NCBI GenBank assembly: GCA_964510885.1
Contig: CAZEDL010000003.1
Span: forward strand, 31,686 to 95,685
Length of the DNA stretch: 64,000 nucleotides
Source of the DNA: an uncultured Gammaproteobacteria bacterium
Lineage (GTDB): Bacteria; Patescibacteriota; Patescibacteriia; Magasanikbacterales; GWA2-37-8
Direction: 5' to 3'
Positions 20,444 through 64,000 of this stretch are shown here, in pieces. Position numbers and translations under genes: made by a program. How positions within the stretch are numbered: position 1 is the first letter of the stretch; every line of letters begins with the position of its first letter. The notes below the pieces were generated by a model. It saw only the letters and a program-made list of their open reading frames with translations, searched no databases and was not told where the DNA came from.

Positions 20444-23400
20444 ATGCGCAGGCGATTAAGGATTTATATTAATTTTATTATGAATAAATTAGGAACGAAA
20501 ATCCTGAATTCCGTTGTAACGTTGGCCGTTACGGTGGTCTTCTCCGGTTTGAATCTCCTCGCGCCAGTAGCTGCTAACGCCGCTGTCTGTCCGACGCTCA
20601 ACCCTGGAGACATGATCAAAGTAACCGGCAAACCGGCTATTTATGTAGTCAACAACAATCTTCAGGTACAATATTTCCCAAGTGGATATGTATTCAAGAG
20701 CTGGCGCCCGACCTACGGTGGTTACACCTCCGTATCGATGGCTTGCTTTGATTCTTTGAATCTTCCAACCAACCCTCCATACGGCGTTAACTTTGCCCCA
20801 GGGTCCTATGTCATCAAGCGTCCGTCTTCGGATCAGCTTTATGTCGTTGAACCAGGCAACGTTAAAGCGAAGATCACCACTGAAGCTGCTAAAGCTCTCT
20901 ATGGTAACTTCTTCCAGCCGCAAGTAATCAATGATGAATTCTGGCCAAACTACCCAGTACTTGGTAACGATGTTACCGAAGCCAAACCATTCCCTGGTTT
21001 CCTCTTCAGCAACAAAGGCACCACTTGGTACATGGATGTAGATGGCAAAGCTCGTCAGGTTACTGCCACTGGCTTAACTGCTAATGGCTTCCAGACTGCT
21101 TTTGTCCACCCAGTGGCTGATGCAGTTGTAGCTGGTCTTCAGACCGGTGCTACGATTGATGCTGAAGTTAAATCGATCACCGACAAAACCCAGAGTGGTG
21201 GTGTCGCTGCTCCTTCTAACCCAAGCAACCCAAGCAACCCAAGCACTCCAGGCGGATCTTTGAGCGTTTCGCTCTCTTCCGACAACCCATTTGCTGCGAC
21301 TGTTGTTTCCGATTCTGGCACCAATGGTGCACAGGCTATGGTTCCAGTGTTGAAACTTAACTTCTCTGCTGACAACAGCGGTGATGTCAAAGTTACCACA
21401 TTGAGTTTGAAGCGCGCTGGCGTATCGGCTGATACTGATATTGCCAACATGTACCTTTATGATGATGCTGGTGTACGCTTAGCTGGTAACCCGAGTGTTG
21501 CTAACAATATTATTAGCTTCACCAACAGCTCTGGCCTCTTCACTGTCACCAAAGGCACCACGAAATCCGTTAAAGTCCTCTTGGACCTCAAGAACGCGGT
21601 TTCTGCAGGCAAGACCTTCCAGTTCGTTGTAGCTGACGCTGCAAGCGTTACTTCTAACGCCACTGGTTCGGTTGGCGGCACCTTCCCATTAACGGGTAAT
21701 GTGTTCACCACCGCTTCAGTTACTGATCTTGGTAAATTAACTGTTTCTAGCGTGTCCCCGTCTTCCAACACTACTGTTGATCCGGGCACCACTGGTTACG
21801 AAATTTGGAGACTCCAGGCTGTAAGCAGCAACCAGGATATTGAAGTCCGCAAGCTTGTTTTCACCATCGTTGGTTCTATCAACGTTGGCGATATTCAGAA
21901 CATCTCCCTCTGGGATGGTTCCAAGCAGCTTGGCGCCACTGTGGTTGACATGGCTGCAGACAAGACGGTCACTTTTGATCTCGCTGCTGCTCCATACGTA
22001 ATTACCAAAGGACAGACTAAAACCCTCAGCCTTAAAGCTGATATCAAAGGCGGCACTAACCGCAGCTTCCGCGCTTCTCTTCAGAATGGCAGCGATGTAG
22101 TTAGCTATGACAAAAACTACAATGTCTACCTGAAGACGAATGGTACGGACAGCTTCTCAATCGTTCAGCCAAATACCGCTGGTACCGCTGTTAACATTTC
22201 CGTTAACACCGGCACCTTGACGCAGACTTTGGCCGCGGATTCTCCGACCGGAAATATCGCTTTGAACGCTACGGGTGTAACGCTTGCACGCTTTGCGTGG
22301 CAGGCTAATGGTGAAGATATAAAAGTCAGCTCGCTGAACGTTTCATCCACCATTTCTTCAAGCCGCACTCTTACCAATGTACGCTTGATGGTTAACGATA
22401 ACCAAGTTGGTACGACTATCAGCACTTTGACCGGTAACGGCGTTTCCAACTCTGGTTGGGGCACCTTTGGCAACAGCTTCATCATTAAAGCTGGCACCAC
22501 GGCTAAAGTAGAAGTTAGAGCTGATCTGACTGGTTCTGCCGCCCTCAATGACACTGTCGTTGTTGGTCTCCCAGCTGGTTCAAGCAATGCTCAGGGTGTT
22601 GTATCTCTCAGCTCACTTAGCACTTCTGAAAAGAATGCTAACACGTTGACCGTTAAATCCGGTACGGTATCGGTATCTCTTGACACCTCTTTTGGTAACA
22701 AGACTGCCAGCAATCCGAACGGTACGATCAATGCTTCAGGAGCTAAAGTTGGTTCCTTCATTATCACCTCTGGTGCTGGTGAATTCGTTAAAGTCAGCGG
22801 AATTACGTTGACCGAAACTGCTTCCAACAACGGTTCGACCTGTGTTGGTAGCTATATGCAGAACTTGACGCTTAAGGATGCTGCAGGCAAGACTCTTGGT
22901 ACTGCCTATGCAAATCCGTCGGCTACTTGTTCTAGTGCTAATTCCTTCAACTTTACGTTCCCTGAGGTAACGATCGAAAAAGGTGCTCAGTATGTCGTTG
23001 GCGTCTACGCTGACCTCAAAGCTGCTTTCAGCACGGCTGCTACCTCTCTTATTAAAGTTGATGCCGTAACTGCTACGGGTGGTGACACTAATGGCACTGC
23101 CAGCGTATCTGGTCAGGCTTTGGCCCTCCAGTACAACTACATTTCGACTGCCGGTAACTTCACTGTTGCCACCGATTCCAACACTCCGGTTTCCCGCAAC
23201 TTGCTTATGGGTGCCGTAGATCAGGAACTTGGTCGCTTCAACATTACTGCCAGCACGACTGAAGCTATCAACATCACGGAACTTGTGCTCAGCAACCGCG
23301 TCAGCTCTGCTGCCACCGGTACGCTCCGCAACGTCCGTTTGTACGACAACGACAATGGCGCTCTCATCGGCTCTGCTGTCCCGTCGTTCACCAACACGAA

Positions 23401-24190
23401 CTCCAACGGCACCTTGGTGCACGCGGTGTTCAGCGGCCTGAAATTCCAGGTACCGAAAGGAAACTCCAAAGTCGTTATCGTTAAGGCTGACCTTACGACC
23501 TACGATGATTTGGGTTCCCCAGCTACCACTGGTCAGACTGCCAATCTTGCTATCTTGAAGAACTACACTGGTAGCACCCTGTCTATCACTGCTACTGGCG
23601 CTTCTTCCGGTGTATCTATCACCCCGACGGTGATCAACTCTGGTACGAATATCCCGGATATCACTGGTAACTTCGTGGCTTACACGAACACCAGCACGTT
23701 ATACCGCGCTAAACTTACCACTGCTTGGAGCACGGATACTCCGTCCGGTGCTGCTGGCGGATCAGCTTCCCAGATCGTAGGCAAATTCGTTATCACGAAC
23801 CTTGCTAACGCTGGTAACTACTCCGCTACTGTCCAGTCGATCAACTTCGACTTGTCGACCACGATCTCCAACACTGCTGACCGCGCTTTGACTGTCTATA
23901 AAGACTCCATTGCTACGGGCAACATCGTTGCGACGACCTCTTGGCTCGCTGCTGGTAACCAGAACTTCTCTGACACTGCGATTACTGATGCCGGTTTCAC
24001 CGATGTCAGCATCTCGTCTGGTCAGGCTAAGACTTTCTGGGTCACCTTGGACACCAGCAATGCCGCTTCTACGAAGAATCTTTCCATCCGCATTGGTTCG
24101 AGCGACGTATCTTGGACCGACGGTGTAAACAGTGGCCTCACTGTTATGGATCAGGATCTTCCGCTTCAATTCAGGACCTTCACCTACTAA
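20444..24190 (+). CDS. Giant secreted surface-layer-like protein (1248 aa) with Ig-like repeats
   Basis: Signal peptide (…LAVTVVFSGLNLLAPVAANA|AV), a PSNPSNPSNPSTP linker, and repeated ~100-aa units (…DIKVSSLNVSS…, …DIEVRKLVFTIVGS…). It is Thr/Ser/Asn/Gly/Val-rich. Codon usage is markedly biased toward ggt/gct/act/cgt/aac/ttc/tac, unlike the neighbours, which suggests very high expression. An alternative start lies at ATG 20480. Confidence 0.7.
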   Translation: MRRRLRIYINFIMNKLGTKILNSVVTLAVTVVFSGLNLLAPVAANAAVCPTLNPGDMIKVTGKPAIYVVNNNLQVQYFPSGYVFKSWRPTYGGYTSVSMACFDSLNLPTNPPYGVNFAPGSYVIKRPSSDQLYVVEPGNVKAKITTEAAKALYGNFFQPQVINDEFWPNYPVLGNDVTEAKPFPGFLFSNKGTTWYMDVDGKARQVTATGLTANGFQTAFVHPVADAVVAGLQTGATIDAEVKSITDKTQSGGVAAPSNPSNPSNPSTPGGSLSVSLSSDNPFAATVVSDSGTNGAQAMVPVLKLNFSADNSGDVKVTTLSLKRAGVSADTDIANMYLYDDAGVRLAGNPSVANNIISFTNSSGLFTVTKGTTKSVKVLLDLKNAVSAGKTFQFVVADAASVTSNATGSVGGTFPLTGNVFTTASVTDLGKLTVSSVSPSSNTTVDPGTTGYEIWRLQAVSSNQDIEVRKLVFTIVGSINVGDIQNISLWDGSKQLGATVVDMAADKTVTFDLAAAPYVITKGQTKTLSLKADIKGGTNRSFRASLQNGSDVVSYDKNYNVYLKTNGTDSFSIVQPNTAGTAVNISVNTGTLTQTLAADSPTGNIALNATGVTLARFAWQANGEDIKVSSLNVSSTISSSRTLTNVRLMVNDNQVGTTISTLTGNGVSNSGWGTFGNSFIIKAGTTAKVEVRADLTGSAALNDTVVVGLPAGSSNAQGVVSLSSLSTSEKNANTLTVKSGTVSVSLDTSFGNKTASNPNGTINASGAKVGSFIITSGAGEFVKVSGITLTETASNNGSTCVGSYMQNLTLKDAAGKTLGTAYANPSATCSSANSFNFTFPEVTIEKGAQYVVGVYADLKAAFSTAATSLIKVDAVTATGGDTNGTASVSGQALALQYNYISTAGNFTVATDSNTPVSRNLLMGAVDQELGRFNITASTTEAINITELVLSNRVSSAATGTLRNVRLYDNDNGALIGSAVPSFTNTNSNGTLVHAVFSGLKFQVPKGNSKVVIVKADLTTYDDLGSPATTGQTANLAILKNYTGSTLSITATGASSGVSITPTVINSGTNIPDITGNFVAYTNTSTLYRAKLTTAWSTDTPSGAAGGSASQIVGKFVITNLANAGNYSATVQSINFDLSTTISNTADRALTVYKDSIATGNIVATTSWLAAGNQNFSDTAITDAGFTDVSISSGQAKTFWVTLDTSNAASTKNLSIRIGSSDVSWTDGVNSGLTVMDQDLPLQFRTFTY

Positions 24191-24231
24191 TCGTTTAGTA
24201 GTCTGAACTTGAGTTAGCGAAAGCGACTAAC

Positions 24232-24267
24232 ACCCCCCTCCGGGAAACCGGAGGGGGGTTGTTTTTT
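24232..24267 (+). terminator. Strong intrinsic terminator after the surface-protein gene
   Basis: cacccccctccgg-gaaa-ccggaggggggtt followed by TTTTTT. Confidence 0.8.
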
Positions 24268-24314: not shown

Positions 24315-26549
24315 ATGCTGATTCGTTATAGCTCAAAAATTTTAAACATTTTGCTTCTGGCTAGTCTGTGTTTGCCGCTTCTATTCACACCGGCTACCAT
24401 GTTTCCGTGGCATTTTGGCAAAACGATGGTGTTTCAAATAATGGTAGAAGCGGCGACCCTATGCTACACAATTAGCCTGCTTGGTGGGTTACGGTCAGTC
24501 CGGCGATTATCGTTACTTGATTGGTCGTTAGTTATTTTTTTGTTGTTTAGCGTAGTTACGGCTTTGATCGGTGGATCGTTTGGGTTTAGCTGGTGGGGGA
24601 ATCAGAGCCGCGCCAATGGAATTTTTGTATTTATTCATTTTGCGGCCTGGTATGCGCTCCTTAGCCACGAGTGGCGAACCAAAGAAGACTGGGTGCTCGG
24701 CTGTATGATCGCTGTCGGGGTCGGACTAGTGGTAAGCTTTACTGGATTTTTTCCAGCCGTGCTTCCGGGTGCCTGGATAGGTGTCGGTGGCGGGCGTGCC
24801 AGTGGGATCGTGGGCAATCCAGCTTTTTTGGCGTCCTATCTGGTCCCAGTCATAGCAATTTCTTTTTTAGGGTGTCTAATAAGTGTTAAACAGTGGCAGC
24901 GCTATGTGTTTTTAGCTGCTGTGCCTGTCTTCGTAACAGCGATTATATATACGGCCACACGCGGGGCCTGGCTGGGTCTGCTGGCTGGGAGTGCTACGGC
25001 GCTTGTAGTAGCGAGCCTACATCTGCCGAGATGCCGAACTAAACAGGTAACGCTTGGCTTGCTCACAGCTGGTGTATTGGCTGCTGGGACCCTGTGGGTG
25101 TTGGTTGCTACGAATTCGACACTTCTCGCTGTAGTGCCACGTCTCAAGAGCCTGAGTGCTATTTCGTTCACGAGTGGTACGGCAGCAACTCGCCTCATGG
25201 CGTGGCATATTGCTTGGGAGGGGATACGGCTCAAGCCGGTTACTGGGTACGGTTGGGGAAATTACGGGATCGTGTTTAATCAGTTTTATAATCCGCATTT
25301 TTTACGTTCTGGGTTGAGCGAGACGGTGTGGGACAAGCCGCACAATTGGGTATTGGAGTTGGCTGTGAACGGTGGAGTCATTTTGGTGCTCAGTTATCTG
25401 GCGATCGTTGCGATCGCAGCTTATTATGTGGTGCGGGGCCGAATGGTGTTCCTTGGCGAACAGCCAGTTATGACAGCACTCGTCAGAGCGGTACTAGTCG
25501 GGGGCTTAGTAGCCTGTTTGGTGCAAGGATTGTTTTTGTTTGAAACTAGTTTTTCGCTGTGGGGATGGTTTTTCCTCTTGGCATTTATTAACGCCTTGAT
25601 CCTTATGCCGACCACCGATTCTGGGCGTACATTTAGATTGCAACCAGAAATATGTGCGGGAATTAGTATCGTGTCGGCCGTAGCGGTTGTGTGTCTCGTT
25701 TATTATGGTTCGATTATTCCACTGCGCGCTTCGCATCAGCTTCTGTTAGCTGACAATGAACGCGATATTCAGGCTTGGGCAACGTTTGGCAAACAGGCAC
25801 TTTTGGCACCAAAACCGTGGCGCGAGGAAGTTGCCGTATTACTAGCTCGCAGACTCACACGTTTTAACAATCAGCCTAACTTTCAACTGACTGACCGGGC
25901 TAAAATTACAGCAGAGGCGGTGATTACTGAGCTTGATGCAGCTTCTATTCGTGCGCCTCGTGTACTCGATTTTCCACTTTGGGCCGGCCAGGTGTACCAG
26001 GTGCTTGGGCAACAAACAACCACTACGGATTATTATGTTCGAGCCGAGTCTGAGTTTGCCCGGGCGAGAGCAATTTCTCCGCGTAAACAAGAGGTATTAT
26101 TTTTGCTGACAAAATTATATTTATCGGAGCAGAAATTTGAGCAGGCAATCGCCATGCAAACAGAAGCGATTGCCCTTGATCCTGAGATTGGTCTTAGTCA
26201 TTGGTTACTCGGAATCGCATATGCTGCCGCTCAAAAGCCAGCTGAGGCAGTAGCGGCGATTGAGGCGGCAGAGCAGAAAGAGTTTGCCTTGACTCGAGCC
26301 CAAGAATTGTATGTAATTGAGTTGTATGCCGGACTTAAGCGGTATGACCAGGTGATAGTCCGCTTTAAGCGGATTCATGAAGCAGAACCGACGAATTTGG
26401 AATGGGCAGTAAAATTAGCTACGGCCTATGCTCTTGGTGGGCAAAAGGCAGAGGCACTGGCCTTGGCTAGGCAGATTGCCACTGACAAACCAGATATGGC
26501 CGATGAAGTGGCGGCTTTTATCAAGCAATATCGGCTTGATATTCCTTAA
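24315..26549 (+). CDS. Wzy_C (O-antigen ligase / O-oligosaccharyltransferase family) polytopic membrane protein with a C-terminal TPR domain
   Basis: About 12 TM with the Wzy_C loop region (YTATRGAWLGLLAG...TRLMAWHIAWEGIRLKPVTGYGWGNY). The C-terminal ~300 aa are TPR-like (LGIAYAAAQKPAEAVAAIEAAEQ...). Confidence 0.8.
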   Translation: MLIRYSSKILNILLLASLCLPLLFTPATMFPWHFGKTMVFQIMVEAATLCYTISLLGGLRSVRRLSLLDWSLVIFLLFSVVTALIGGSFGFSWWGNQSRANGIFVFIHFAAWYALLSHEWRTKEDWVLGCMIAVGVGLVVSFTGFFPAVLPGAWIGVGGGRASGIVGNPAFLASYLVPVIAISFLGCLISVKQWQRYVFLAAVPVFVTAIIYTATRGAWLGLLAGSATALVVASLHLPRCRTKQVTLGLLTAGVLAAGTLWVLVATNSTLLAVVPRLKSLSAISFTSGTAATRLMAWHIAWEGIRLKPVTGYGWGNYGIVFNQFYNPHFLRSGLSETVWDKPHNWVLELAVNGGVILVLSYLAIVAIAAYYVVRGRMVFLGEQPVMTALVRAVLVGGLVACLVQGLFLFETSFSLWGWFFLLAFINALILMPTTDSGRTFRLQPEICAGISIVSAVAVVCLVYYGSIIPLRASHQLLLADNERDIQAWATFGKQALLAPKPWREEVAVLLARRLTRFNNQPNFQLTDRAKITAEAVITELDAASIRAPRVLDFPLWAGQVYQVLGQQTTTTDYYVRAESEFARARAISPRKQEVLFLLTKLYLSEQKFEQAIAMQTEAIALDPEIGLSHWLLGIAYAAAQKPAEAVAAIEAAEQKEFALTRAQELYVIELYAGLKRYDQVIVRFKRIHEAEPTNLEWAVKLATAYALGGQKAEALALARQIATDKPDMADEVAAFIKQYRLDIP

Positions 26550-26566: not shown

Positions 26567-27271
26567 ATGTCTCGTAAAAAAATTATTACCCTACTTGCAG
26601 TGGTTGCGGGGCTAGCTTTCGCCATTGCGATCGTGATGCGTCTCGTGACTCAAGGTGTGATTGGCGATCCTAACCGTGCTTTATTTAACCGTATAAAAGA
26701 TAAACCGCAATTAGTGGAGCTCTATCGAATGGCTGAAGACGAAGACGAAAAAATGCGCGCCGAACCAGAAAATCCGTCACGGTATCTGAATGCAGGTTTG
26801 GCCTGGAAAGGGCTGGGAGATGGATCTCGCGAGCGGGTATTTTTGGAAAAGTCGTTGGCTATTTATGAAGACGGTATGGAGCGTTTTGGTCAGAAGAATA
26901 TTTTATTTTATCTGAATGCGGGCAAGGTAGCTGAGTCGCTTGGTGATTATGCTAAGGCGGAACAGTATTATCGAACAGCGATCACAATTTCTCCGCTAGA
27001 TGAAAGCAGCTATCTCTACATTGCTGACATGTATATCTATAAGATGAAGAAAACTAACGAGGAGATTTTGGCAGTGTTCAATGATGCTGAGCAGAAGGTT
27101 AGTGATAAGCTGGCAGTGATTTGGGCGCGTGGCACGTATCTACGGCGGATTAATGATTATGAGAAGGCGCTCAAAGATTATGAGGCTTTGGTAGAGAATT
27201 TTCCCCAAGAGGCGGGTTACAAGCAGATCGTAGCAGAGCTGAAGGCTAAAATTTCGGCCGGTAAAAAATAG
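26567..27271 (+). CDS. TPR-repeat protein with an N-terminal membrane anchor
   Basis: TM (IITLLAVVAGLAFAIAIVM) followed by TPR-like repeats (AGLAWKGLGD..., LNAGKVAESLGDYAKAEQYYRTAI...). Confidence 0.7.
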   Translation: MSRKKIITLLAVVAGLAFAIAIVMRLVTQGVIGDPNRALFNRIKDKPQLVELYRMAEDEDEKMRAEPENPSRYLNAGLAWKGLGDGSRERVFLEKSLAIYEDGMERFGQKNILFYLNAGKVAESLGDYAKAEQYYRTAITISPLDESSYLYIADMYIYKMKKTNEEILAVFNDAEQKVSDKLAVIWARGTYLRRINDYEKALKDYEALVENFPQEAGYKQIVAELKAKISAGKK

Positions 27272-27349
27272 TATGAGGTACTTATCCACAGATTATATTT
27301 TTCTCCTGGCGATTTAGAGTATACAATGCTTGGTTAGAGGAGGAAAAAA

Positions 27350-27398
27350 ATCTCGACTGTTTAGGTTGCTTTGGCAAACAGTAAGTCGAGATTTTTTT
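27350..27398. terminator. Bidirectional long-hairpin terminator
   Basis: aaaaaaatctcgactgttt...aaacagtaagtcgagattttttt. Confidence 0.6.
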
Positions 27399-27669
27399 GT
27401 AGGTTAAAGATGCCTTAGGAGTTCGAAAGATCAAAAACAGTGGTTACGCTATATTTTCTACTGTCGCTGGTTGAATTTTGTCGACTTTTTTAAAACAAGT
27501 GGGGAATTGGAGCGTTAGCTTACTTTTGAATAAGCTTGTGCTCAGTGACAGATTCTGGCTGGTGCAAAAATTGATTTTTGCTTTGATTTTACTAGTATAG
27601 ATTGACGGTAGTGCCCTTTTGCTTTACACTGAAAGAGTTGTAATTTATAGTGTTTGTCTTTGTCTACTT

Positions 27670-35232: not shown

Positions 35233-35236
35233 TTAT

Positions 35237-35848: not shown

Positions 35849-35854
35849 TTTGGT

Positions 35855-38348: not shown

Positions 38349-39050
38349 ATGCTCACGTTGTCGATTGTTATCCCGGTTTTTAATGAAAAAAATACGATTT
38401 TAAAACTGCTTGAAGCGGTGGAAGCTGTAGGGTTGCCTATGCTGCAAAAACAAGTTGTGATTGTTGATGATTGTTCCACGGATGGCACGCGCGATATTTT
38501 ACACACATTGAAGGGAGATTCTTACAAAATTTTGTTCCAGGAAAAAAATCAGGGCAAAGGGGCGGCACTCCGGCGCGGTTTTGCCGAAGCAACCGGAGAT
38601 TTTATTATTATCCAGGATGCAGACCTTGAGTATGATCCGGCTGAATATCCATTACTCCTCGAACCCTTATTATCAGGCAAAGCTGATGCGGTGTTCGGGT
38701 CACGTTTTATCGGCGACCGGGCGCATCGGATTTTATTTTTTTGGCACTCGGTAGGCAACAAGTTTTTGACCTTGTTGTCGAATATGCTGACCAACCTGAA
38801 TTTAACCGATATGGAGGTATGTTATAAAGCATTCACTCGCGGGGCCATGAAAAAGATTCTGCCAACTCTCACCTCTAATCGGTTTAATATTGAGCCCGAG
38901 CTTGCTGCCCGGGTGGCCCAGGCGCACCTGCGTTTGTATGAAGTGGGGATTTCGTATCATGGACGCACCTATGCCGAAGGCAAAAAGATTGGTTGGAAAG
39001 ATGGCGTCAGTGCTATTTGGTCAATTTTTAAATTTAACTTGTTCTCGTAA
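38349..39050 (+). CDS. GT2 polyprenyl-phosphate sugar synthase (DPM1/ArnC-like)
   Basis: [10 protein letters not shown]...[11 protein letters not shown]...[11 protein letters not shown]...[10 protein letters not shown]. The DxD and GT-A features are present. Confidence 0.85.
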
Positions 39051-46115: not shown

Positions 46116-46128
46116 TTTTAAGCATGAT

Positions 46129-53584: not shown

Positions 53585-53600
53585 TGGCTGAAAATTTTTT

Positions 53601-56261: not shown

Positions 56262-56957
56262 TTAACGCTTGGTTATTTTCCAGGTAATCAACCGCCAGAG
56301 ATGTTTTAAAAAATTTACGCTCTCACGCAGCCCCATTTTGCTTTTGCCGAGGTAGCGATTGCGAAATATATAAGCCACTTCAGCGATTTTCGTAACGCCG
56401 CTTTTTACCACAATTTCCAAAAGGATTTTATAGCCGAGCGGTGAGAAGTTTTTTCCGTTAAGAAGGGTTTTCTTTAGGAAGAAATAACCGGACATCGGAT
56501 CGGTGATCGCTACGCCAAGTGGCCGGGTGAGGAGGGTGGCGAAACGCGACGAAAGTTTACGATACCAGGGCCAGTTTTCAACGAGGCCACCAGGAAGATT
56601 GCGGCTGCCGATCGCAAGATCCGCTGTTTCTAATTTTTTTAGTAGTAGGGGAATCAGATCTGGCGGATGCGAGAGGTCGGCATCCATCACTCCAACTATA
56701 TCGTATTTGGCTTTGGCAAAGCCGGTTAAGACGGCGGTAGCTAGCCCGCGGGTGGTCCGCTCAATGATTATAATAGGATAGGCGAGTTGCAAACTGTGCA
56801 GATGTGCAACGGTTCCATCGGTGGAGCCGTCGTCAACAATGATTAATTCGGCCTCGTTAACAAGCGGGCTTTTGGCCAGAGTGGCTGCTACATCAGTGAG
56901 CAATTTTTCGATACTATCCCGCTCATTTAGTGTCGGGATAACGAGCGAAACATTCAT
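56262..56957 (-). CDS. GT2 polyprenyl-phosphate sugar synthase (DPM1-like)
   Basis: VSLVIPTLNE...[11 protein letters not shown]...MDADLSHPP. Start at ATG 56957. Confidence 0.8.
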   Translation of the reverse strand: MNVSLVIPTLNERDSIEKLLTDVAATLAKSPLVNEAELIIVDDGSTDGTVAHLHSLQLAYPIIIIERTTRGLATAVLTGFAKAKYDIVGVMDADLSHPPDLIPLLLKKLETADLAIGSRNLPGGLVENWPWYRKLSSRFATLLTRPLGVAITDPMSGYFFLKKTLLNGKNFSPLGYKILLEIVVKSGVTKIAEVAYIFRNRYLGKSKMGLRESVNFLKHLWRLITWKITKR

Positions 56958-56961
56958 AGTG

Positions 56962-57669
56962 TTAGCGAGGTTGCCAGCGATCAATCACAAATCGTTTGCC
57001 GCGCCAAATTTCGAGCAAAAATGTTCGTAGCACACGCCAGCCGGTTGGAAGCGTGTAGGCGGTACTATGGCCGCCAATCCGATCGCCCTCAGTTGTCGGA
57101 AATTCAACTACTTTGAAACCGAGTTTCAGGGCGCGAATCGACATTTGGAATTCAATGGCAAATCCTGGTTCGTCGGTATTTAATTCTAATAATTTATCTT
57201 TACGGATTGATCGGTAGCCGTTGATGGTGTCGGTGATGGTGCCACCCCAAAATAATTTAACGAGACCGGTAAAACCTTTGTTGGCCCAGGCACGCGGGCG
57301 ATACCATGAAACATCTTCTTCATTACGGGCGCCCGGTAGGAAGCGAGAAGCAATAGCCATGTCGGCTCCGTTAATAATAGCGTCGCGTAATTTTAACAGG
57401 TCATCTGGGTTTTCATTGCCGTCGGGAGCAAAGAACACCATTATATCGCTTGTGGCATTGGCGGCTGCTAAGCGGATGGCATTGCCGCGACCGGGCGTAA
57501 CCTGTGGAATTACTTTAATATTATGATCATGAAAAAATTTGAGCGTGCCGTCGGTAGAGTTGAGGTCAATCGCCAACACCTCATCAAAAGCTGATAAAGG
57601 GATGCGAGGAAATAAACTGGTCACGCCGTTAATTTCATTGCGAGTAGTGATGATGAGGGTAGAGGTCAT
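56962..57669 (-). CDS. GT2 glycosyltransferase (DPM1-like)
   Basis: LIITTRNE...AIDLNSTDGT...FFAPDGNENPDD. Confidence 0.8.
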   Translation of the reverse strand: MTSTLIITTRNEINGVTSLFPRIPLSAFDEVLAIDLNSTDGTLKFFHDHNIKVIPQVTPGRGNAIRLAAANATSDIMVFFAPDGNENPDDLLKLRDAIINGADMAIASRFLPGARNEEDVSWYRPRAWANKGFTGLVKLFWGGTITDTINGYRSIRKDKLLELNTDEPGFAIEFQMSIRALKLGFKVVEFPTTEGDRIGGHSTAYTLPTGWRVLRTFLLEIWRGKRFVIDRWQPR

Positions 57670-57672: not shown

Positions 57673-58623
57673 TTAAGAATAATGAAGCGAATCACGATTT
57701 ACTTTATACCATTCAATAGTTGCTCGGAGCCCAACCTCAAGACTGGTGACGGCTTTGAATCCTAGAATTTTTTCGGCTTTACTCGTATCAACTGACCGAC
57801 GGGCTTGGCCATTTGGTTGCGATGTATCATAGGCAACCGTGCCCGTGTGGCCAGTTAAGGATCGGATGAAGTCGACTAATTCTTTGATACTAGTTTCGGT
57901 ACCGGAACCAAGATTAATCGGCTCGGATGATTCTAGTTGCTCGGCGGCTAATATTACCCCTTCGGCAAAGTCATCAACATAGAAAAAATCACGGGTCGGT
58001 GTCCCATCGCCCCAGACAATTAATGGGTCATCGCCACGGAGGCATTTTTGGATGAGCGAGGGAATGACATGCGAATATTCGGGGTGAAAACTGTCGCCTG
58101 GGCCATAGGCATTATTGGGAATGACTACTACTGCATTAGTCCCGTATTGTTCACGATAGGCGCTGGCTTGGACGGTCATCAATCGTTTGCCAACTCCATA
58201 GGCGAGATTGGTTTCTTGTGGTAGTCCTGACCATAAATTTTCTTCGGTCAGTGGGTAGGTGGTATTTTTTGGGTACGCACAGGCGCTCGACACCATGACG
58301 ATTTTTTTGACGTTGGCATTTTTAGCAGTTTCCATGATTTGTAGGTCCATCAAAATATTTTGATAGTACTGCATCGCGGGGAATGAGCTGCTGTACCCGA
58401 CCCCACCAAGCCGGGCGGCCAGATGAATAACAACGTCAATCTTATGTTCTGAAAAGAGCCGGGCGCAATTTGATTGGTGGCTCAGATCGTCACGTTTAGA
58501 ATCAGGAATAATAATCTGATTTGGTGTCAAACCACGTTTTTCGATAAGATTTTTGACAACTGAGTGCCCGATAAAACCAGATCCGCCGGTAACGAGAACG
58601 GTGAGATTACGAAGGTCAAGCAT
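57673..58623 (-). CDS. fcl: GDP-L-fucose synthase (GDP-4-keto-6-deoxy-D-mannose 3,5-epimerase/4-reductase)
   Basis: VLVTGGSGFIGHSV..., KIDVVIHLAARLGG, SSACAYP, YGVGKRLM. Start at ATG 58623. Confidence 0.85.
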   Translation of the reverse strand: MLDLRNLTVLVTGGSGFIGHSVVKNLIEKRGLTPNQIIIPDSKRDDLSHQSNCARLFSEHKIDVVIHLAARLGGVGYSSSFPAMQYYQNILMDLQIMETAKNANVKKIVMVSSACAYPKNTTYPLTEENLWSGLPQETNLAYGVGKRLMTVQASAYREQYGTNAVVVIPNNAYGPGDSFHPEYSHVIPSLIQKCLRGDDPLIVWGDGTPTRDFFYVDDFAEGVILAAEQLESSEPINLGSGTETSIKELVDFIRSLTGHTGTVAYDTSQPNGQARRSVDTSKAEKILGFKAVTSLEVGLRATIEWYKVNRDSLHYS

Positions 58624-58630
58624 AGAAAAG

Positions 58631-59959
58631 TTACACAGTGGTCGGTTTATAATAGCGATATATCTTTGAAAGTGAATCAAAGGCTACGATAAACAGTAAA
58701 AAGTTAATCGGAATGCGCAGCCGAGCGCCACCAATTGGCGAGGCTAAGATAGTATATCCTAGTAGGACAGCCACGATAATAAGTGATTCTTTGGGCCATC
58801 GTTTGAGTAAGCGGTACTGTATTATTGGGTTGATAAAGGCGAATACTGCGAGGAGTCCCCATAATAGATCCGGAACTAACAGCAGTAGTAAGTTCGGATT
58901 ATGTGTAAATTGTCGGACTGTCTGGATTGGATGGGACACTTCTAGGCGATAAAAATACTTGCCATCCACGAGGTCAAAATGGATACCTGGCACATTTAAA
59001 CCGTTGGCAATATTAGACAAACCAGAATCAAGAAACAGGTAGGGCAGGCGCACAGTGTGGTATGCTAAGTATTCGCCAAAATGCGACTTAATGTAGCCAA
59101 TTCCGATAGATTTTAGCAGTGCTATAGGGCGCGCGTCAAATGTATTATTAACCTGATTTAGGTCTAATTCAGGCAGTCTGTCAGTTGCGCCCCGCTCGGC
59201 CCGCCAGGTATCAAAATAGACACCATGATAGGCATAGAGGTCAAAACTACCAAGCGAGCTAAATTCGTTGGTCTTAATGATAAATTTACTATAGTAGGCC
59301 CAGGGGCTAATGACGATAAAAAAAGCGGTGAGCGCCAATAGTCCTTGTTTCCAGTACTGTTTTAGGCCCATAAGTAGGATCGTAATTGGGATTATTACTC
59401 CAATATATAGGGCAACTGGTTTGGTAAGGGCTGACAAGCCAAGTAGGGTAGCCCCAGCTATTAAAAATTTGGGCCGCGATTCGCGGGCAGCCACGGCGAG
59501 ACAAAGGATGCTGATTGTAAACAGTGTAGTAAAGAGCGGTTCAGTCATGACTTGACTGCTGATGAGCGCAGTCATCGGTTCGATACCAATAGCAGCGGTT
59601 GCCAAGAGGGCGATAGGGTTCGGGAATAGCCGCCGTGATAAGAGGTAATAGCCGATGAGTCCGAGCGCAAAAATGAGATTTTGGATAATTACGGGTGTAT
59701 ACAGGTTGGTTTTTGCCGCTACGAACGGGACCAGGAATAAGGGGTAGAGCGGGGTTCGAAAATTATCAGGGTGAGGGGTGGGTGAAAATTCCATCGAGAA
59801 TACGCCGTGGTTAATCACATTGTGAGCTACTTGCAGGTAGGTGATGCTGTCAGAAATATATAGCAAGGAACGTTCGTTTTTAAACGAAAATAGCGCCAGA
59901 GAGCGCATGCCAAGAGTGGCGATAATAATTAAAACAAGTAAGCGAAAGCTCGATTTCAC
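58631..59959 (-). CDS. GT-C superfamily membrane glycosyltransferase (ArnT/PMT-like), paralogue of 36892
   Basis: DSITYLQVAHNVINHGVFS...FRTPLYPLFL (compare FRTPGYPLLL in 36892). Polytopic. Confidence 0.7.
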   Translation of the reverse strand: MKSSFRLLVLIIIATLGMRSLALFSFKNERSLLYISDSITYLQVAHNVINHGVFSMEFSPTPHPDNFRTPLYPLFLVPFVAAKTNLYTPVIIQNLIFALGLIGYYLLSRRLFPNPIALLATAAIGIEPMTALISSQVMTEPLFTTLFTISILCLAVAARESRPKFLIAGATLLGLSALTKPVALYIGVIIPITILLMGLKQYWKQGLLALTAFFIVISPWAYYSKFIIKTNEFSSLGSFDLYAYHGVYFDTWRAERGATDRLPELDLNQVNNTFDARPIALLKSIGIGYIKSHFGEYLAYHTVRLPYLFLDSGLSNIANGLNVPGIHFDLVDGKYFYRLEVSHPIQTVRQFTHNPNLLLLLVPDLLWGLLAVFAFINPIIQYRLLKRWPKESLIIVAVLLGYTILASPIGGARLRIPINFLLFIVAFDSLSKIYRYYKPTTV

Positions 59960-60064
59960 ACAATCAGTTTGGTGATATTAGTATACCTGACGAGCTAGCT
60001 TTTCGGCAACCGCTAGATCAGTTGGTTGCATCTTGCTGCGGCCTTGTGGTACCGTACTCACGCT

Positions 60065-61222
60065 ATGCGAATTATTTTTATCGCCTATAAATTGAATTTT
60101 GGAGGAGGGGGTGGTTCTACTATCGAAATGGATTCTAAGGCTAGGGCATTATTGTCTGCGGGTCATTCGGTGTCTGTCGTGACGCTCGCGTCGCAGTATA
60201 ACTTCTTGGCTGGGGAACGGCCATATCAAGTCTATGAAGAACATCTTGTCGCGACTGATTTTTTTTCTTTACAGCGCGGGGCGGTAAGGGTGCTGCGTGC
60301 TTATGAGGCAAAGGCCGATATATTCCATTTAGAAGGCCATTTTGGCTATGGTGGAGGATGGTATCGAATGACTGGTGGTAGAGCAAAAACGGTCGTCCAT
60401 TTTAATCGTGAACTTTCTTCGTTTCCTGAGTATACGCGAGCCGCATATCGCCCGCGGCTACCAAGCCCGAAGCATTTGGTGAGGTTTTATGCTGAGCGAA
60501 TATTCGGAGTGCCGCTAATAAATAAAAACAACAGGCTTACATTTACTTCGCCACTGTTGGCTGATGCGTTTGCTCGGTTTGGTTTAAGGCGGTCACTTAT
60601 GACGGTGGCGCCTGATTTTCCAAGCTCTTCAGAGGTGGTCCCGGGAGAGGAAGATCAGCAGCGAATTTTGTCGCTGCGACGCGAAAGCAGGTCTCCACTG
60701 ACACTTTTGTCCGGAGGTCGAATGGTAAAGGAAAAAGGGTTTGATGTTATTTTAGCAGCGGTAGCACGGTTGCCGGCTACATGCCCATATTTTTTACATC
60801 TCACTGGTGACGGGCCCGAACGGGAAGCCTTGCAAGATCAGGCAGTGCGACTTGGTATTTCCGAACGAGTAAAATTTTTGGGTTGGTTGACAAAGGAACA
60901 GTTGCGCGAGGAATATCAGCGTGCTGATTTATTCATAGTTCCGCGGTGGCGGCCTGAGTTGACGTCGATGCTAGTTCTCGAAGCGGCAGCTTATGGGTTG
61001 CCACAAATAGTGACAGCCAATTCAGCTATCGCCTGGCAAGCTGGTGATCAAGTGTTAGTATTTGACGATGAGGATTCTGAGGCTCTAGCAAGGCAAATTT
61101 TACGTTACGCATTGGACAGCGAGAGTCGTGTCGGCGCTGTTCGGTCGGGGTTTAAACGATTGTCTGAATTAAGCGCTGCCGAAAGTCTGAAAGTGCTTAA
61201 TGAAGTTTTTTTAAAGGCGTAA
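60065..61222 (+). CDS. GT4-family glycosyltransferase
   Basis: MRIIFIAYKLNFGGGGGSTIE... plus the C-terminal group-1 domain. Start at ATG 60065. Confidence 0.8.
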   Translation: MRIIFIAYKLNFGGGGGSTIEMDSKARALLSAGHSVSVVTLASQYNFLAGERPYQVYEEHLVATDFFSLQRGAVRVLRAYEAKADIFHLEGHFGYGGGWYRMTGGRAKTVVHFNRELSSFPEYTRAAYRPRLPSPKHLVRFYAERIFGVPLINKNNRLTFTSPLLADAFARFGLRRSLMTVAPDFPSSSEVVPGEEDQQRILSLRRESRSPLTLLSGGRMVKEKGFDVILAAVARLPATCPYFLHLTGDGPEREALQDQAVRLGISERVKFLGWLTKEQLREEYQRADLFIVPRWRPELTSMLVLEAAAYGLPQIVTANSAIAWQAGDQVLVFDDEDSEALARQILRYALDSESRVGAVRSGFKRLSELSAAESLKVLNEVFLKA

Positions 61223-61259: not shown

Positions 61260-62318
61260 TTATATTTTCGTCCAGATTTTCTTGGCCGCCGATTGTTTTA
61301 TTGCTTCAATAATTTTTTGTGTACGTAGGCCTTCACGAATAGTGGGTAACGATGAGTTTGGTGTTTGAAGGTTTTTGATAAAAGAAGACGCTAGTTTTGA
61401 AAACGGCTCAAGCCGCCCATCGACTTTGGATTTGTTCAGATTTTTTTGAGCTGCTTGGGTAATATTTTTTGGCTCGCCATCACCGATAGTTTGCCAGAGC
61501 TCAAAGCCTTTTATAAAATCAAACAGGTTTTTATTCTCAAGTTTGAGCGTTCCGTGCTCGCCATAAATTATACAGCGATGACCGTCGCCTCCGTATACTA
61601 CATTTGTCAGGTTTATAGTGCCCGGTGTTTTATCCTTTAAAACACACAAAATTTGGGCGGTGTCTTCAGCTGTTGGCAGTGGTTGGTCGGTGGGGTAGGT
61701 TTTTTTAGTGCGTGAGAGCGAGGCCGACACTTTTCCTATCGGGCCCAGCAGCCATTCAACGTAGTCAAAAATATGCGGCCCGTAGTTTAATACTATGCCG
61801 CCCCCGAATTTTTTATAATTCGACCAAGCGAGAGGGGTATTTGGTTTGGCTCGGCCACCTCCGCAATAAGTGATTTGGAAGCTGCGAATGGCCCCAATTA
61901 CACCGCTGTCAAGAATTTTTTTAGCATGCTCGAATACGGGTACGAAACGCATTTCAAAGTCGATTGCATGAGGTAACTTTTTGGCGGTGATTAGGCGAGC
62001 GAGCTCAACTGCTGTTTTCAGATCGGTAGCGAGCGGTTTTTCGAACAGTATTGGTTTGTTAACACGGGCTGCAAGTTTAATAAGCCGCGCTTGCGTGGAC
62101 GGGGGAACAGCGAGCGAGACTATATCTATATCAGGGTCATTAATCAGGTCTTCGGCGCGTTCAAAAGTGCGGGGAATGTGATATTTTTGGGCACAAGTTA
62201 AGGTTTTGTTGAAGTTTTTTCCAGCAATTCCGTGAACGATTGCGAGGTTGGTTGCAGTGTATCCCGGGTGTTGTATTTTTGCTCCGAAGCCTGTGCCAAT
62301 AATACCGATACGTTTCAT
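61260..62318 (-). CDS. Gfo/Idh/MocA-family NAD(P)-dependent oxidoreductase
   Basis: MKRIGIIGTGFGAKIQHPGY... with the conserved EKP motif (ILFEKPLA). Confidence 0.85.
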   Translation of the reverse strand: MKRIGIIGTGFGAKIQHPGYTATNLAIVHGIAGKNFNKTLTCAQKYHIPRTFERAEDLINDPDIDIVSLAVPPSTQARLIKLAARVNKPILFEKPLATDLKTAVELARLITAKKLPHAIDFEMRFVPVFEHAKKILDSGVIGAIRSFQITYCGGGRAKPNTPLAWSNYKKFGGGIVLNYGPHIFDYVEWLLGPIGKVSASLSRTKKTYPTDQPLPTAEDTAQILCVLKDKTPGTINLTNVVYGGDGHRCIIYGEHGTLKLENKNLFDFIKGFELWQTIGDGEPKNITQAAQKNLNKSKVDGRLEPFSKLASSFIKNLQTPNSSLPTIREGLRTQKIIEAIKQSAAKKIWTKI

Positions 62319-62320
62319 AA

Positions 62321-63565
62321 TTAAGGAGCTATAATTTTTACGTCGGGAAGTGGGCAAATGAATTTCCCACGGAAACCTTTTGCGCGTAGTTTCGTCATTA
62401 GTTCCTGGCCAATATGCCAGGATAGTAGTAGGCCATATTCCGGCTGTTCTGAAAGCAGTATCTCTTCATCAACAATTGGGATGTGGGTGCCGGGCGTGTA
62501 GAGTCCGATTTTCGGCGAGCCATTTTTTTCGAGGGCGTAGTCTATTAATTGATTATCTAGGTGGGCGAATTGAAGCAAGGTGTTGGAGCGACCTGGTGCG
62601 CCGATTCCAAATACACGGGCACCTTCTTGGCGGCACGCAACGATAGTTGCTATCAGGTCTTGTTTGGCCTTGATAAGTTTGCTTGAAAAATTTTCGAATA
62701 TGCGGCCGTCATATATCCCCATGGCTTCTTCGGCCGCCATAATTTTTTTGGCTCTCTCACTCATTACGTACTTGCCTTTTTTAGCATACACGCGGATAGA
62801 ACCGCCAGCTGCTTCGATTCGTTCGGCATCGATGAGCGATAGGCCGACGTTGTTAAGTAATTTTTGTAATGGTTTAAGTGAATAGTAACGCAAGTGTTCA
62901 TGATAAATAGTATCCAGTGCGTTTTTTTCTAGCATGTCGACCAGGTATTGTGATTCAGAAATAAAGAGGCCGCTGTCTTTTAGAAGGTTGGCAATTGCCT
63001 GCGCAAAGGGGAAAACGTTATTAACGTGTGCAAACATATTTGTTGCCGTAACGACATCGGCTTGGCCATTATTGGCGATAATTTTTTCAACAGAGTTCTG
63101 GGTAAAGAATTCTTGTACGGTAGGGATACCATGATCATTGGCGACTTTGGCCACGTTGGTAGGTTCGATGCCCAATACTTTGGCACCGATGTCTTTAAAG
63201 CCAGCGAGCAGGGTCCCATCGTTTGATCCAATATCGACTACGAGTGACTCGCTCGATAGCGGATGCATTTTTTGCACCTCATCTCGTAAATTGCGGAAGT
63301 TGTTAACGAGCATGGTGGTCATGCCTGTAAAATATGGGTATTCCGGATAAAAAATAGTCTTTGGGTCAACAATAAAATTTAGTTGAATAAGACCGCAAGC
63401 CGAACAGCGGCAGAGAGTGAGTGGGTACAGAGTTTCAGGTTGGTGCAAGGAGGTGCTGTTTAGGTGGGCATGCACCGGGGCTTGATGTCCAAGTGAAATT
63501 ATTTCAATAAGCGGCGATTGTCCGCAAAATTGACAGTTGTTGATCGGTCCGTGTTCGATAATCAT
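62321..63565 (-). CDS. NDP-hexose C-methyltransferase (TylC3/TcaB9-like)
   Basis: N-terminal Zn-ribbon (CQFCGQS...CRCSACGL), then a class I MT core (VVDIGSNDGTLL) and the C-terminal C-methyltransferase domain. Confidence 0.8.
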   Translation of the reverse strand: MIIEHGPINNCQFCGQSPLIEIISLGHQAPVHAHLNSTSLHQPETLYPLTLCRCSACGLIQLNFIVDPKTIFYPEYPYFTGMTTMLVNNFRNLRDEVQKMHPLSSESLVVDIGSNDGTLLAGFKDIGAKVLGIEPTNVAKVANDHGIPTVQEFFTQNSVEKIIANNGQADVVTATNMFAHVNNVFPFAQAIANLLKDSGLFISESQYLVDMLEKNALDTIYHEHLRYYSLKPLQKLLNNVGLSLIDAERIEAAGGSIRVYAKKGKYVMSERAKKIMAAEEAMGIYDGRIFENFSSKLIKAKQDLIATIVACRQEGARVFGIGAPGRSNTLLQFAHLDNQLIDYALEKNGSPKIGLYTPGTHIPIVDEEILLSEQPEYGLLLSWHIGQELMTKLRAKGFRGKFICPLPDVKIIAP

Positions 63566-63575
63566 AACAAAGTAG

Positions 63576-64000
63576 TTATTTGGTATTGCCGGGATTTTTT
63601 AAATCATGCTCGACCATGATTTTTACCAATTCTTTGAAGGTGGTAGTTGGTTTCCAGCCGAGGAGGCGCTTGGCCTTGCTAGCATCGCCGCACAGGTATT
63701 CAACTTCATTAGGGCGCAGATAGCGGTCGTTGACTTTGAGAATTTTTTTCCAGTCGAGACCAGCGAGGGCAGCGGCTTCCATCAAAAATTCTTTGACCGA
63801 GTGGGTTTCGCCGGTCGCAATCACAAAATCATCGGGTGTTTTTTGCTGCAACATGAGCCACATCGCTTCGACATATTCAGGTGCATAGCCCCAGTCGCGA
63901 CGAGCTTCAATATTGCCAAGTTTAATGAATTTTTCTTTGCCCATCACGATGTCGCGAATGCCAAGTGTTATTTTGCGGGTAACAAAATTCTCCCCGCGGC
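63576..64000 (-). CDS. gmd: GDP-mannose 4,6-dehydratase, C-terminal part (5' end beyond the window)
   Basis: KLGNIEARRDWGYAPEYVEAMWLMLQ is the canonical Gmd motif. The reading frame stays open to the window edge. Confidence 0.85.
   Translation of the reverse strand, partial: RGENFVTRKITLGIRDIVMGKEKFIKLGNIEARRDWGYAPEYVEAMWLMLQQKTPDDFVIATGETHSVKEFLMEAAALAGLDWKKILKVNDRYLRPNEVEYLCGDASKAKRLLGWKPTTTFKELVKIMVEHDLKNPGNTK

Follow-up and report, generated by a model that had tools for sequence, protein, structure and literature searches.

What does a cell make when it carries, directly behind the gene for a large secreted protein, some 40 kb of glycan genes? The question is raised by a stretch of 64,000 nucleotides (contig CAZEDL010000003.1 of assembly GCA_964510885.1, positions 31,686 to 95,685 of the forward strand; this whole stretch is called the window below) from an uncultured bacterium of the Magasanikbacterales, in the Patescibacteria or candidate phyla radiation (CPR). 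An earlier note had read positions 20444-64000 as one system for producing a cell-surface glycoprotein. Our analysis points instead to two adjacent modules, an envelope module A (15.5-24.3 kb) and a glycan-assembly module B (24.3 kb to beyond 64 kb), which are probably functionally coupled. The form of coupling we prefer is a pathway like those of the slg clusters of Firmicutes, in which a glycan is transferred to the surface protein and is decorated by pairs of GT2 and GT-C enzymes; we give this reading about an even chance of being right.

How far does the stretch form a unit? Pfam and NCBIfam scans of essentially every open reading frame of at least 120 aa in the window, together with PDB scans, found nearly every gene class of the earlier inventory where it had been placed. 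From about 24.3 kb to the window end there are two proteins with a Wzy_C domain fused to tetratricopeptide repeats (Wzy_C-TPR), a TPR-only protein, and seven GT4, five GT2 and six GT-C glycosyltransferases. The glycan locus is contiguous over at least 40 kb and runs off the window inside gmd. At 31034-55049, 20 consecutive plus-strand genes are separated by gaps mostly of 16 bp or less, the only larger ones being of 50, 135, 259 and 195 bp, and throughout the island gaps without an assigned gene are at most about 350 bp long. In its contiguity, its tight packing and the gene adjacency described below, the claim of one system stood. It gave way at the upstream end, where the surface protein belongs to a separate conserved module that starts at about 15525, ahead of where the earlier note began, and is closed by a terminator, and in two of eight lineages, where the two modules are unlinked. 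The junction between them is laid out as follows.

20444-24190, plus strand: conserved secreted surface protein, 1,248 aa, with a signal peptide and no Pfam hit
24232-24259, plus strand: strong hairpin resembling an intrinsic terminator (12-bp stem with 10 G-C pairs, T-run)
24315-26549, plus strand: membrane protein of 744 aa with Wzy_C (56.6 bits) and C-terminal TPR (TPR_19)
26567-27271, plus strand: membrane-anchored TPR-only protein, 234 aa (TPR families; N-terminus of RKK followed by a transmembrane, TM, segment)
27619-29718, plus strand: second Wzy_C-TPR protein, 699 aa (Wzy_C 67.5 bits)
29675-30883, minus strand: GT4 glycosyltransferase (Glycos_transf_1 117 bits; orthologs in the relatives L001, L082, L083 and L101)
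31034-31981, plus strand: UDP-glucuronate decarboxylase (UXS), an unambiguous assignment (human UXS1, E 1.8e-118)

The first Wzy_C-TPR protein is, by its domains, a candidate O-oligosaccharyltransferase, ligase or polymerase. A search with the Wzy_C-TPR protein returned TPR proteins only (OGT, SPINDLY) and no WaaL. The TPR-only protein has a predicted N-in topology, which would put its repeats outside the membrane, and its gene is kept in L001, L082, L100 and L101. The second Wzy_C-TPR protein is 54-65% identical in L101, L001 and L082 and exceeds the surface protein in conservation (54% in L101 against 32-35%); UXS is 64-71% identical in L001 and L082. Across relatives the head of the island, made up of the second Wzy_C-TPR gene, the antisense GT4 gene and UXS, is conserved at 41-71%. 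No open reading frame lies in the 347-bp gap (27272-27618) that separates the TPR-only gene from the second Wzy_C-TPR gene; at this site the relatives carry differing insertions, a 134-aa gene with an RF-1 domain (L001), a 577-aa DUF2207 gene (L082) or two genes without assignment (L101).

The link between the modules comes from synteny. We compared eight genomic contexts of surface-protein homologs, those of the window, L082, L001, L100, L083, L101, L084 and L085. In the first six of these a Wzy_C-TPR gene lies immediately downstream of the surface gene, the surface proteins of the five linked relatives being 76%, 63%, 43%, 40% and 35% identical to that of the window. Alongside the Wzy_C-TPR gene there are in most cases the TPR-only gene, a second Wzy_C(-TPR) gene, the antisense GT4 gene and UXS. 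Downstream of this head the gene content of the island varies. The synteny that had been proposed as a check holds for the junction in six of the eight lineages and for the head. O-antigen, capsule and slg loci likewise have a conserved head followed by hypervariable cassettes. The adjacency links the surface protein to the Wzy_C-TPR enzymes but falls short of proof that the one is the substrate of the others, which is an inference.

What kind of protein would be the acceptor? At least 198 homologs of the surface protein, about 1,240 aa in length, were found, and those with names belong solely to Candidatus Magasanikbacteria, the Parcubacteria group or the "Patescibacteria group". Together with the nearest genomes by the carbamoyltransferase, which are of Magasanikbacteria, this assigns the window to an uncultured CPR bacterium. 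The entry P0001 (1,236 aa) is 100% identical and starts at MNKLGTK, 12 codons further in, which makes 20480 the probable true start. Read from there, the sequence has a signal peptide of the AXA type (...APVAANA/AV). An AlphaFold2 (AF2) model (mean pLDDT 87) has an N-terminal alpha/beta domain of about 200 residues with a conserved Cys pair, a disordered linker (PSNPSNPS) and some 9-10 Ig-like beta-sandwich domains. This recalls the "beads on a string" plan that has been described for S-layer proteins of Bacilli (PMC13635256). Foldseek matches are strings of Ig-like domains (PrgB, antigen I/II, the S-layer protein of Nitrosopumilus maritimus, integrins), a generic set, and the modelled fold would fit an S-layer protein or an adhesin alike. 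Ser and Thr make up 23% of the residues. Pfam scans found no SLH, CWB2 or other known anchor domain in the protein. In one homolog, P0023, PG_binding_1 stands in place of the N-terminal domain, while residues 268-1248 align at 58% identity; because of this replacement, the sequence suggests that the N-domain is a cell-wall anchor.

On the preferred reading the sugars, the acceptor and the order of steps would be these. UXS, the UXS-like and UDP-glucose dehydrogenase (UGDH)-like proteins, Gmd, the Fcl-like protein, the C-methyltransferase and the GFO-type oxidoreductase would supply UDP-Xyl or UDP-uronate and GDP-6-deoxy/C-methyl-hexose donors. At the cytoplasmic face, a lipid-linked oligosaccharide would be put together by the seven GT4 enzymes. 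Once this had been exported, a Wzy_C-TPR enzyme would transfer it en bloc to the surface protein, aided by the outward-facing TPR-only protein, and the second Wzy_C-TPR paralog may polymerise or ligate the oligosaccharide. Five soluble GT2 enzymes resembling DPM1 and ArnC would load polyprenyl phosphate with single sugars, which the six GT-C enzymes would add outside the membrane as branches or caps. Tailoring would consist of amidation by an AsnB-like protein, methylation, carbamoylation and possibly (de)acylation by an SGNH-like protein. The priming enzyme and the flippases would be encoded elsewhere. The earlier claim that the glycan is assembled largely outside the cytoplasm goes too far, because seven of the enzymes are cytoplasmic GT4 proteins, and "periplasmic", the word then used for it, is a misnomer for the presumably monoderm CPR cell, extracytoplasmic being meant.

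The closest known arrangement is that of the Firmicutes slg clusters, combined with three-component GT2/GT-C glycosylation. The slg clusters have been studied in Geobacillus stearothermophilus NRS 2004/3a and Paenibacillus alvei CCM 2051T (PMC2943079). There, as here, the surface structural gene adjoins the cluster and has its own transcription, being monocistronic in G. stearothermophilus (PMC2943079) and followed here by the terminator at 24232-24259. WsfB has a Wzy_C domain with C-terminal TPR, and WsaA, a TPR-only protein, is encoded beside WsaB, which has Wzy_C (PMC2943079); the window has proteins of both types, with putative activity. Shared features are also the tight packing, with occasional overlap, of glycosyltransferase and nucleotide-sugar genes, the lower GC of the strain-specific central genes, and a branch step with lipid-phosphate glucose (WsfH/WsfD) without a flippase in the cluster (PMC2943079). 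The differences are several. The window has no priming enzyme of the WbaP type (WsaP/WbaP-like) and no Wzm/Wzt exporter; it has two Wzy_C-TPR paralogs, five GT2 and six GT-C enzymes against one pair, and carbamoyl, amido and C-methyl tailoring. The host belongs to the CPR, and its surface protein is only a candidate S-layer protein or glycoprotein.

A number of observations weigh against transfer to the surface protein. O-antigen ligases and polymerases have Wzy_C domains too. The surface gene is transcribed as a unit of its own, with its terminator before the island, whose first gene starts at 24315. In L084 and L085 (Parcubacteria group, 31-33% identity) the surface gene is followed by BipA and then by housekeeping genes, and the 10 kb downstream are free of glycan genes. 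N-x-S/T sequons, whose enrichment was considered as a sign of N-glycosylation and rejected, number 28 in the surface protein against 22.7 +/- 4.1 in shuffled sequences. No priming phosphoglycosyltransferase (Bac_transf or Glycos_transf_4) was matched among the open reading frames of at least 120 aa in the window, and no exporter (ABC2_membrane, ABC_tran or the Wzx family Polysacc_synt) anywhere in the window. No flippase of the GtrA, SMR or MATE type was found at 20-64 kb or in the window as a whole, nor were a phosphoglycosyltransferase, Wzx, an ABC exporter or a GtrA/MATE flippase seen in the flanks of the relatives. The priming enzyme may be encoded elsewhere; as flippases, two EamA (DMT) proteins at 2829-3728 and 8722-9627 are the only candidates in the window, and speculative ones. 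All five GT2 enzymes score below every NCBIfam equivalog cut-off. Glycosylation, abundance and lattice formation of the surface protein are putative properties.

Several of these points serve a second explanation, the main rival, that the island makes a wall- or membrane-anchored glycopolymer (a secondary cell-wall polysaccharide, teichoic-like or of the lipoglycan type). The Wzy_C-TPR proteins would then be its polymerase and ligase, and the GT2/GT-C enzymes would extend or decorate it outside the membrane, as in mycobacterial lipomannan, lipoarabinomannan and arabinan or in streptococcal rhamnose polysaccharides; the polymer would anchor the surface protein through its N-domain. Wzy_C is found above all in O-antigen ligases and polymerases, loci with many GT-C genes are characteristic of lipoglycan and arabinan synthesis, and an N-domain that can be swapped for PG_binding_1 suggests a wall-binding module; the separate transcription of the surface gene and its unlinked state in L084 and L085 also fit. 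In Firmicutes, S-layer genes often adjoin the genes of their anchoring polymers (the slpA/AP locus of C. difficile; sap/eag and csaAB of B. anthracis). Against a polymer, the window has no LytR-CpsA-Psr (LCP) ligase, polymer exporter or phosphoglycosyltransferase, the Wzy_C-TPR gene follows the surface gene in six of the eight lineages, and the fusion of TPR to Wzy_C beside an outward TPR-only partner mirrors the protein-directed O-oligosaccharyltransferases WsfB and WsaA/WsaB. We consider the glycopolymer possible, though it is not the outcome we expect.

What controls the surface gene? Its own module contains a sigma factor, a putative anti-sigma partner and a structured leader, so placed:

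15525-17264, minus strand: membrane-anchored DUF11/CARDB-like protein, 579 aa (Pfam DUF11)
17360-17689, minus strand: small HTH_17-like DNA-binding protein, 109 aa (open reading frame; syntenic HTH_17 gene in L001, L082, L084, L085 and L100)
18328-18882, plus strand: sigma factor of the extracytoplasmic-function (ECF) type (Sigma70_r2 and r4_2)
18848-20245, plus strand: DUF5667 membrane protein, putative anti-sigma partner (Pfam DUF5667 28.1 bits; TM segment near residue 73)
20324-20373, plus strand: P1/P2 core of the 5' leader (covariation, 6 sequences)
about 20409-20460, plus strand: long 3' hairpin masking the Shine-Dalgarno sequence (covariation, 5 sequences)

The ECF sigma factor and DUF5667 genes lie directly upstream of the surface gene in all eight contexts, and the divergent HTH_17 gene and the DUF11-like protein of about 580 aa are kept in most of them, the latter in the same place in L001, L082, L084, L085 and L100. 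About 230 nt separate the DUF5667 gene from the surface gene, and this region is a conserved structured RNA, with the leader at 20296-20479. Its structure was defined by hand and tested by counts of pairs. In the P1/P2 core 98.6% of the cells are paired across six genomes and 7 of 12 pairs have a compensatory change; its score was unmatched by 500 shuffles, and slid controls pair at 54% or less. In the 3' hairpin the anti-Shine-Dalgarno sequence CCUUAAU pairs with the Shine-Dalgarno AUUAAGG. Here 93.8% of cells are paired in five genomes and 13 of 20 pairs are compensatory, including a complete swap of CCUU/AAGG to UUCC/GGAA, and none of 500 shuffles scored as high. RNAfold recovers the helices of both P1/P2 and the 3' hairpin; RNAalifold, run on a crude MAFFT alignment of the leader, predicted no pairs. 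The leader is present upstream of the surface gene also in L082, L001, L101, L084, L085 and L100. A covariance model found one copy per locus and none elsewhere in 808 kb, all six matches being training sequences, and Rfam has no match for it. The leader thus has the look of an element that controls translation of the surface protein, a candidate cis-regulatory RNA that would act like a riboswitch or respond to a protein or to temperature.

Which enzymes would supply the decoration? Downstream of the head the genes of the island are these.

31989-36886, plus strand: four GT4-type glycosyltransferases (31989, 33065, 34216, 35855) and a methyltransferase (35237), by Pfam; low GC, 0.35-0.44
36892-38298, plus strand: GT-C, 468 aa, no Pfam hit (BLAST to 58631-59959, E 3e-12 over 260 residues; motif in the first external loop, EL1)
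38349-39050, plus strand: GT2 resembling polyprenyl-phosphate sugar synthases, 233 aa (P. furiosus DPMS 5mlz at 1.6e-16, then ArnC and GtrB; AglJ model 120.8 bits)
39062-39907, plus strand: S-adenosylmethionine (SAM)-dependent methyltransferase (Methyltransf_11 87 bits)
39924-41273, plus strand: GT-C (PMT_2), 449 aa (PMT_2 37.8 bits)
41257-43158, plus strand: AsnB-like glutamine amidotransferase (Asn_synthase 255 bits; TIGR01536 425 bits)
43164-43865, plus strand: GT2 resembling polyprenyl-phosphate sugar synthases, 233 aa (Pfam and NCBIfam)
43875-45023, plus strand: GT4 glycosyltransferase (Pfam)
45159-46115, plus strand: short UGDH-like dehydrogenase, 318 aa (Pfam and NCBIfam)
46066-47100, plus strand: UXS-like short-chain dehydrogenase/reductase (SDR), more distant than the UXS at 31034 (UXS1, E 3.5e-52)
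47110-47850, plus strand: GT2 resembling polyprenyl-phosphate sugar synthases, 246 aa, directly upstream of the 591-aa GT-C-like gene (Pfam and NCBIfam)
47860-49635, plus strand: membrane protein of 591 aa, inferred GT-C (hhalign, fusions, Foldseek)
49895-51685, plus strand: NodU/CmcH-type carbamoyltransferase (Carbam_trans_N 306 bits, Carbam_trans_C 235 bits)
51881-55049, plus strand: two tandem GT-C (PMT_2) genes, 51881 and 53601, of 567 and 482 aa (PMT_2 36.4 and 37.3 bits; EL1 motifs GDEE and YDEG)
55050-56258, minus strand: membrane-anchored SGNH/DltD-like protein, 402 aa, a weak assignment (Lipase_GDSL_2 E 0.007 and SGNH E 0.014, below threshold; motifs GGS and DxxH)
56262-57669, minus strand: two tandem GT2 genes, 56262 and 56962, resembling polyprenyl-phosphate sugar synthases, of 240 and 235 aa (Pfam and NCBIfam)
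57673-58680, minus strand: GDP-L-fucose synthase-like (Fcl-like) SDR (NF047922 237 bits, under the cut-off of 500)
58631-59959, minus strand: GT-C (PMT_2), 442 aa (PMT_2 32.1 bits)
60026-61222, plus strand: GT4 glycosyltransferase (Pfam)
61260-64000, minus strand: GFO/IDH/MocA oxidoreductase (61260), NDP-hexose C-methyltransferase (62321) and C-terminal part of Gmd (63576), by Pfam

The transferase counts of the earlier note fared unevenly. Its ten or so GT4 enzymes were too many, Glycos_transf_1 being matched seven times within 20444-64000 and nine times in the whole window. Its five DPM1-like GT2 enzymes are all present (38349, 43164 and 47110 on the plus strand, 56262 and 56962 on the minus strand), and their relatives are polyprenyl-phosphate sugar synthases: the best NCBIfam relatives are AglJ, PgfS, ArnC, PpgS and a haloarchaeal Dol-P-hexose transferase, each of them a synthase of a polyprenyl- or dolichyl-phosphate sugar, and the relatives of solved structure, searched with the 38349 protein, are P. 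furiosus DPMS, ArnC and GtrB. All five are of 233-246 aa and have no C-terminal TM helices. Their sequences support the class, polyprenyl-phosphate sugar synthases, and not the sugar. The "five or six" GT-C enzymes number six. Four score above the PMT_2 gathering score of 26.1 bits (39924, 51881, 53601 and, on the minus strand, 58631); to these are added the proteins of 36892, which is 41% identical to its ortholog in the relative L086, and of 47860. After TM1 all six have an Asp/Glu motif (D-x-E) followed by a helix like Y-x-Q-[IV]-A-x-N. The outcome that the earlier note had named as refuting its reading, GT-C proteins that are not glycosyltransferases, did not come about. PDB sequence searches with the GT-C proteins, those of 36892 and 47860 included, found nothing. 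Among the tailoring enzymes, the AsnB-like protein, the two methyltransferases and the carbamoyltransferase are confirmed, and the esterase assignment is weak. The AsnB-like protein is, from its sequence, likely a uronic-acid amidase. The UGDH-like protein has a GxGxxG-like N-terminus and the catalytic-Cys motif GGYCFPKD and is without the C-terminal UDP-binding domain; its equivalent in L086 is fused to a methyltransferase (546 aa).

Is the 591-aa protein at 47860 a glycosyltransferase at all? It has no Pfam or NCBIfam match even at E of 5 or less, and none in the PDB by sequence. Its gene directly follows a GT2 gene both in the window and in L086. A profile of its family gathered 1,737 cluster representatives (at 50% identity), and 10 longer members that were scanned have an N-terminal GT2 domain in five cases, a GtrA/DPMS (GtrA_DPMS_TM) flippase domain in three and GT4 in one, exactly the fusion partners of three-component systems. 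Compared by hhalign with the five PMT_2-like proteins of the window, the family profile aligns with a probability of 90% (E 1.6e-6, 210 columns), over a region that includes the acidic first-loop motif. The protein has 9-11 predicted TM segments, with a loop of 76 aa after TM1. Its 11 closest homologs all share D56 and E58, but an alignment of 37 sequences leaves only P189 and H359 invariant. The top 17 Foldseek matches are all GT-C enzymes, at TM scores of about 0.2 on a poor AF2 model (pLDDT 63), and this link is only suggestive. Taken together, the proteins of 47860 type probably form an undescribed family of GT-C glycosyltransferases, remotely like PMT_2.

Mann and Whitfield reportedly reviewed the logic of three-component glycosylation in 2016. 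Kelly et al. (2024) extend this logic of extracytoplasmic glycosylation (GtrA/GtrB/Gtr*) and note "more elaborate systems containing multiple ... GT-Cs" in Xanthomonas and Bacillus (PMC11127046). The likeness lies in the pairing of a GT2 synthase with a GT-C, seen here in the adjacent genes 36892/38349, 38349/39924, 47110/47860 and 56262-56962/58631, and in the fusions of 47860 homologs to GT2 or GtrA domains. The island differs in having five or six modules in place of one, and in being without the defining GtrA, SMR or MATE flippase, only EamA proteins being present, upstream; and its GT2 proteins are without the C-terminal TM helices of GtrB and ArnC and resemble DPM1, PpgS and Ppm1-D2. Compared by machinery and not by sequence orthology, the synthesis of lipoglycan and arabinan and protein O-mannosylation in Corynebacteriales (Ppm1, PimE, MptA-D, Aft, Emb, Pmt) are also similar, in that many GT-C enzymes use polyprenyl-phosphate sugars outside the membrane and the polyprenyl-phosphate sugar synthase is a soluble GT2. 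Those genes are scattered and serve lipid- or arabinogalactan-linked polymers, whereas here the genes are clustered beside a surface-protein gene, with Wzy_C-TPR genes. S-layer N-glycosylation in archaea (the Agl system of Haloferax, with the GT2 enzymes AglJ and AglD and the GT-C AglS) likewise adds a lipid-phosphate sugar to an S-layer glycan outside the membrane, and the AglJ model TIGR04182 is the best NCBIfam relative of three of the five GT2s. Their scores of 83-121 bits, however, are far below the equivalog cut-off of 325 bits, and the window has no oligosaccharyltransferase of the AglB/STT3 type, with a bacterial carrier and Wzy_C-type transfer in its place.

The architecture is thus not rare in kind, as the earlier note had supposed in calling it described for few organisms: it matches the slg clusters, and a similar multi-GT-C island is present in a related genome. 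Searches of the relatives by tblastn were too insensitive for counting GT-C genes (they missed an annotated PMT of L001) and were not used to judge rarity. The similar island is that of L086, which very probably lies on the same contig as L001. It keeps about 10 orthologs in similar order, among them a GT2 (70%), a PMT_2 protein (45%), AsnB (56%), a GT4 (42%), the 47860-like protein (58%) and the C-methyltransferase (55%), beside the 36892-like protein already mentioned. Whole cassettes are exchanged as well, MBOAT with DUF1574, an NTP-transferase and a DegT aminotransferase replacing the carbamoyltransferase.

Such exchange raises a third explanation, that the 44 kb are a hot-spot of independent envelope-glycosylation cassettes, in which each GT2/GT-C set would have its own acceptor (pilins, peptidoglycan, scavenged lipids or other surface proteins) and the proximity to the surface gene would be historical. 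The variable tail of the island agrees with this, as do its heterogeneous GC (0.35-0.50 per gene, the dip to 0.35-0.44 falling in the GT4 block), the changes of coding strand at 55 kb and at 60-61 kb, and the intergenic gaps of 135-259 bp. So does a genome scan with the carbamoyltransferase, whose nearest relatives, at 64-67% identity, are in metagenome-assembled genomes of other Magasanikbacteria with neighbourhoods that are not collinear. A metagenome scan with the C-methyltransferase gave short contigs only, at 55% identity or less, and was uninformative. Independent cassettes are harder to reconcile with 20 tightly packed genes on one strand, with the mingling of precursor, transferase and tailoring genes that single glycan loci also show, and with a backbone order that is partly kept in a relative at 63% identity. 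We think a hot-spot of this sort quite improbable.

The rest of the window gives the setting. Its first 15 kb are mostly housekeeping (SHMT, ThiD2-ThiE, radical-SAM enzymes, MetK, a permease, tRNA-Val), with two GT4 genes, two EamA transporters and a GH42-like gene among them; from about 15.5 kb to the window end all genes are envelope- or glycan-related. A glycan-related mini-cluster at 5456-9627 comprises a methyltransferase, two GT4 genes (6145-7380 on the plus and 7427-8638 on the minus strand), EamA and the GH42-like gene, and is syntenic in L085, although L085 is without the downstream island. The tRNA-Val (anticodon TAC, 10795-10869) is the sole RNA gene in the window by Rfam and ARAGORN. 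G+C is about 46%. GC skew is uniformly positive on the plus strand (about +0.10 to +0.24), whatever the coding strand, except at 20-24 kb, where it is negative because the Thr/Ser/Ala-rich surface gene is C-rich.

What would the locus mean for CPR biology? The envelope of CPR/Patescibacteria is essentially uncharacterised. A general remark credits CPR bacteria with many glycosyltransferases and perhaps a glycosylated S-layer (PMC5220378), and our literature searches found nothing specific on GT2/GT-C islands in CPR beyond it. The locus offers a concrete, testable model of such an envelope: a conserved protein, candidate for the major one of the surface and equipped with a sigma/anti-sigma pair and a regulatory leader of its own, is one piece, and candidate O-oligosaccharyltransferases fused to TPR are a second. 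The hypervariable cassettes for lipid-phosphate sugars and GT-C enzymes could underlie surface diversity in host attachment and phage recognition, and the large GT-C-like family of the 47860 protein is missed by current domain libraries. If the locus is simply slg-like, it is ordinary biology in an unusual lineage.

In closing, a bolder view may be stated, one that we regard as unlikely. In it, Magasanikbacteria-type CPR cells would wear a coat of a conserved S-layer-like glycoprotein controlled by a sigma factor and a leader RNA, with much of its glycan built outside the membrane from at least five polyprenyl-phosphate sugars by six GT-C enzymes, including a widespread family that Pfam and NCBIfam do not model, and without dedicated flippases of the Gtr type. 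If true, lumenal and archaeal glycan extension would have a bacterial counterpart here, in organisms thought to be unable to make their own lipids.

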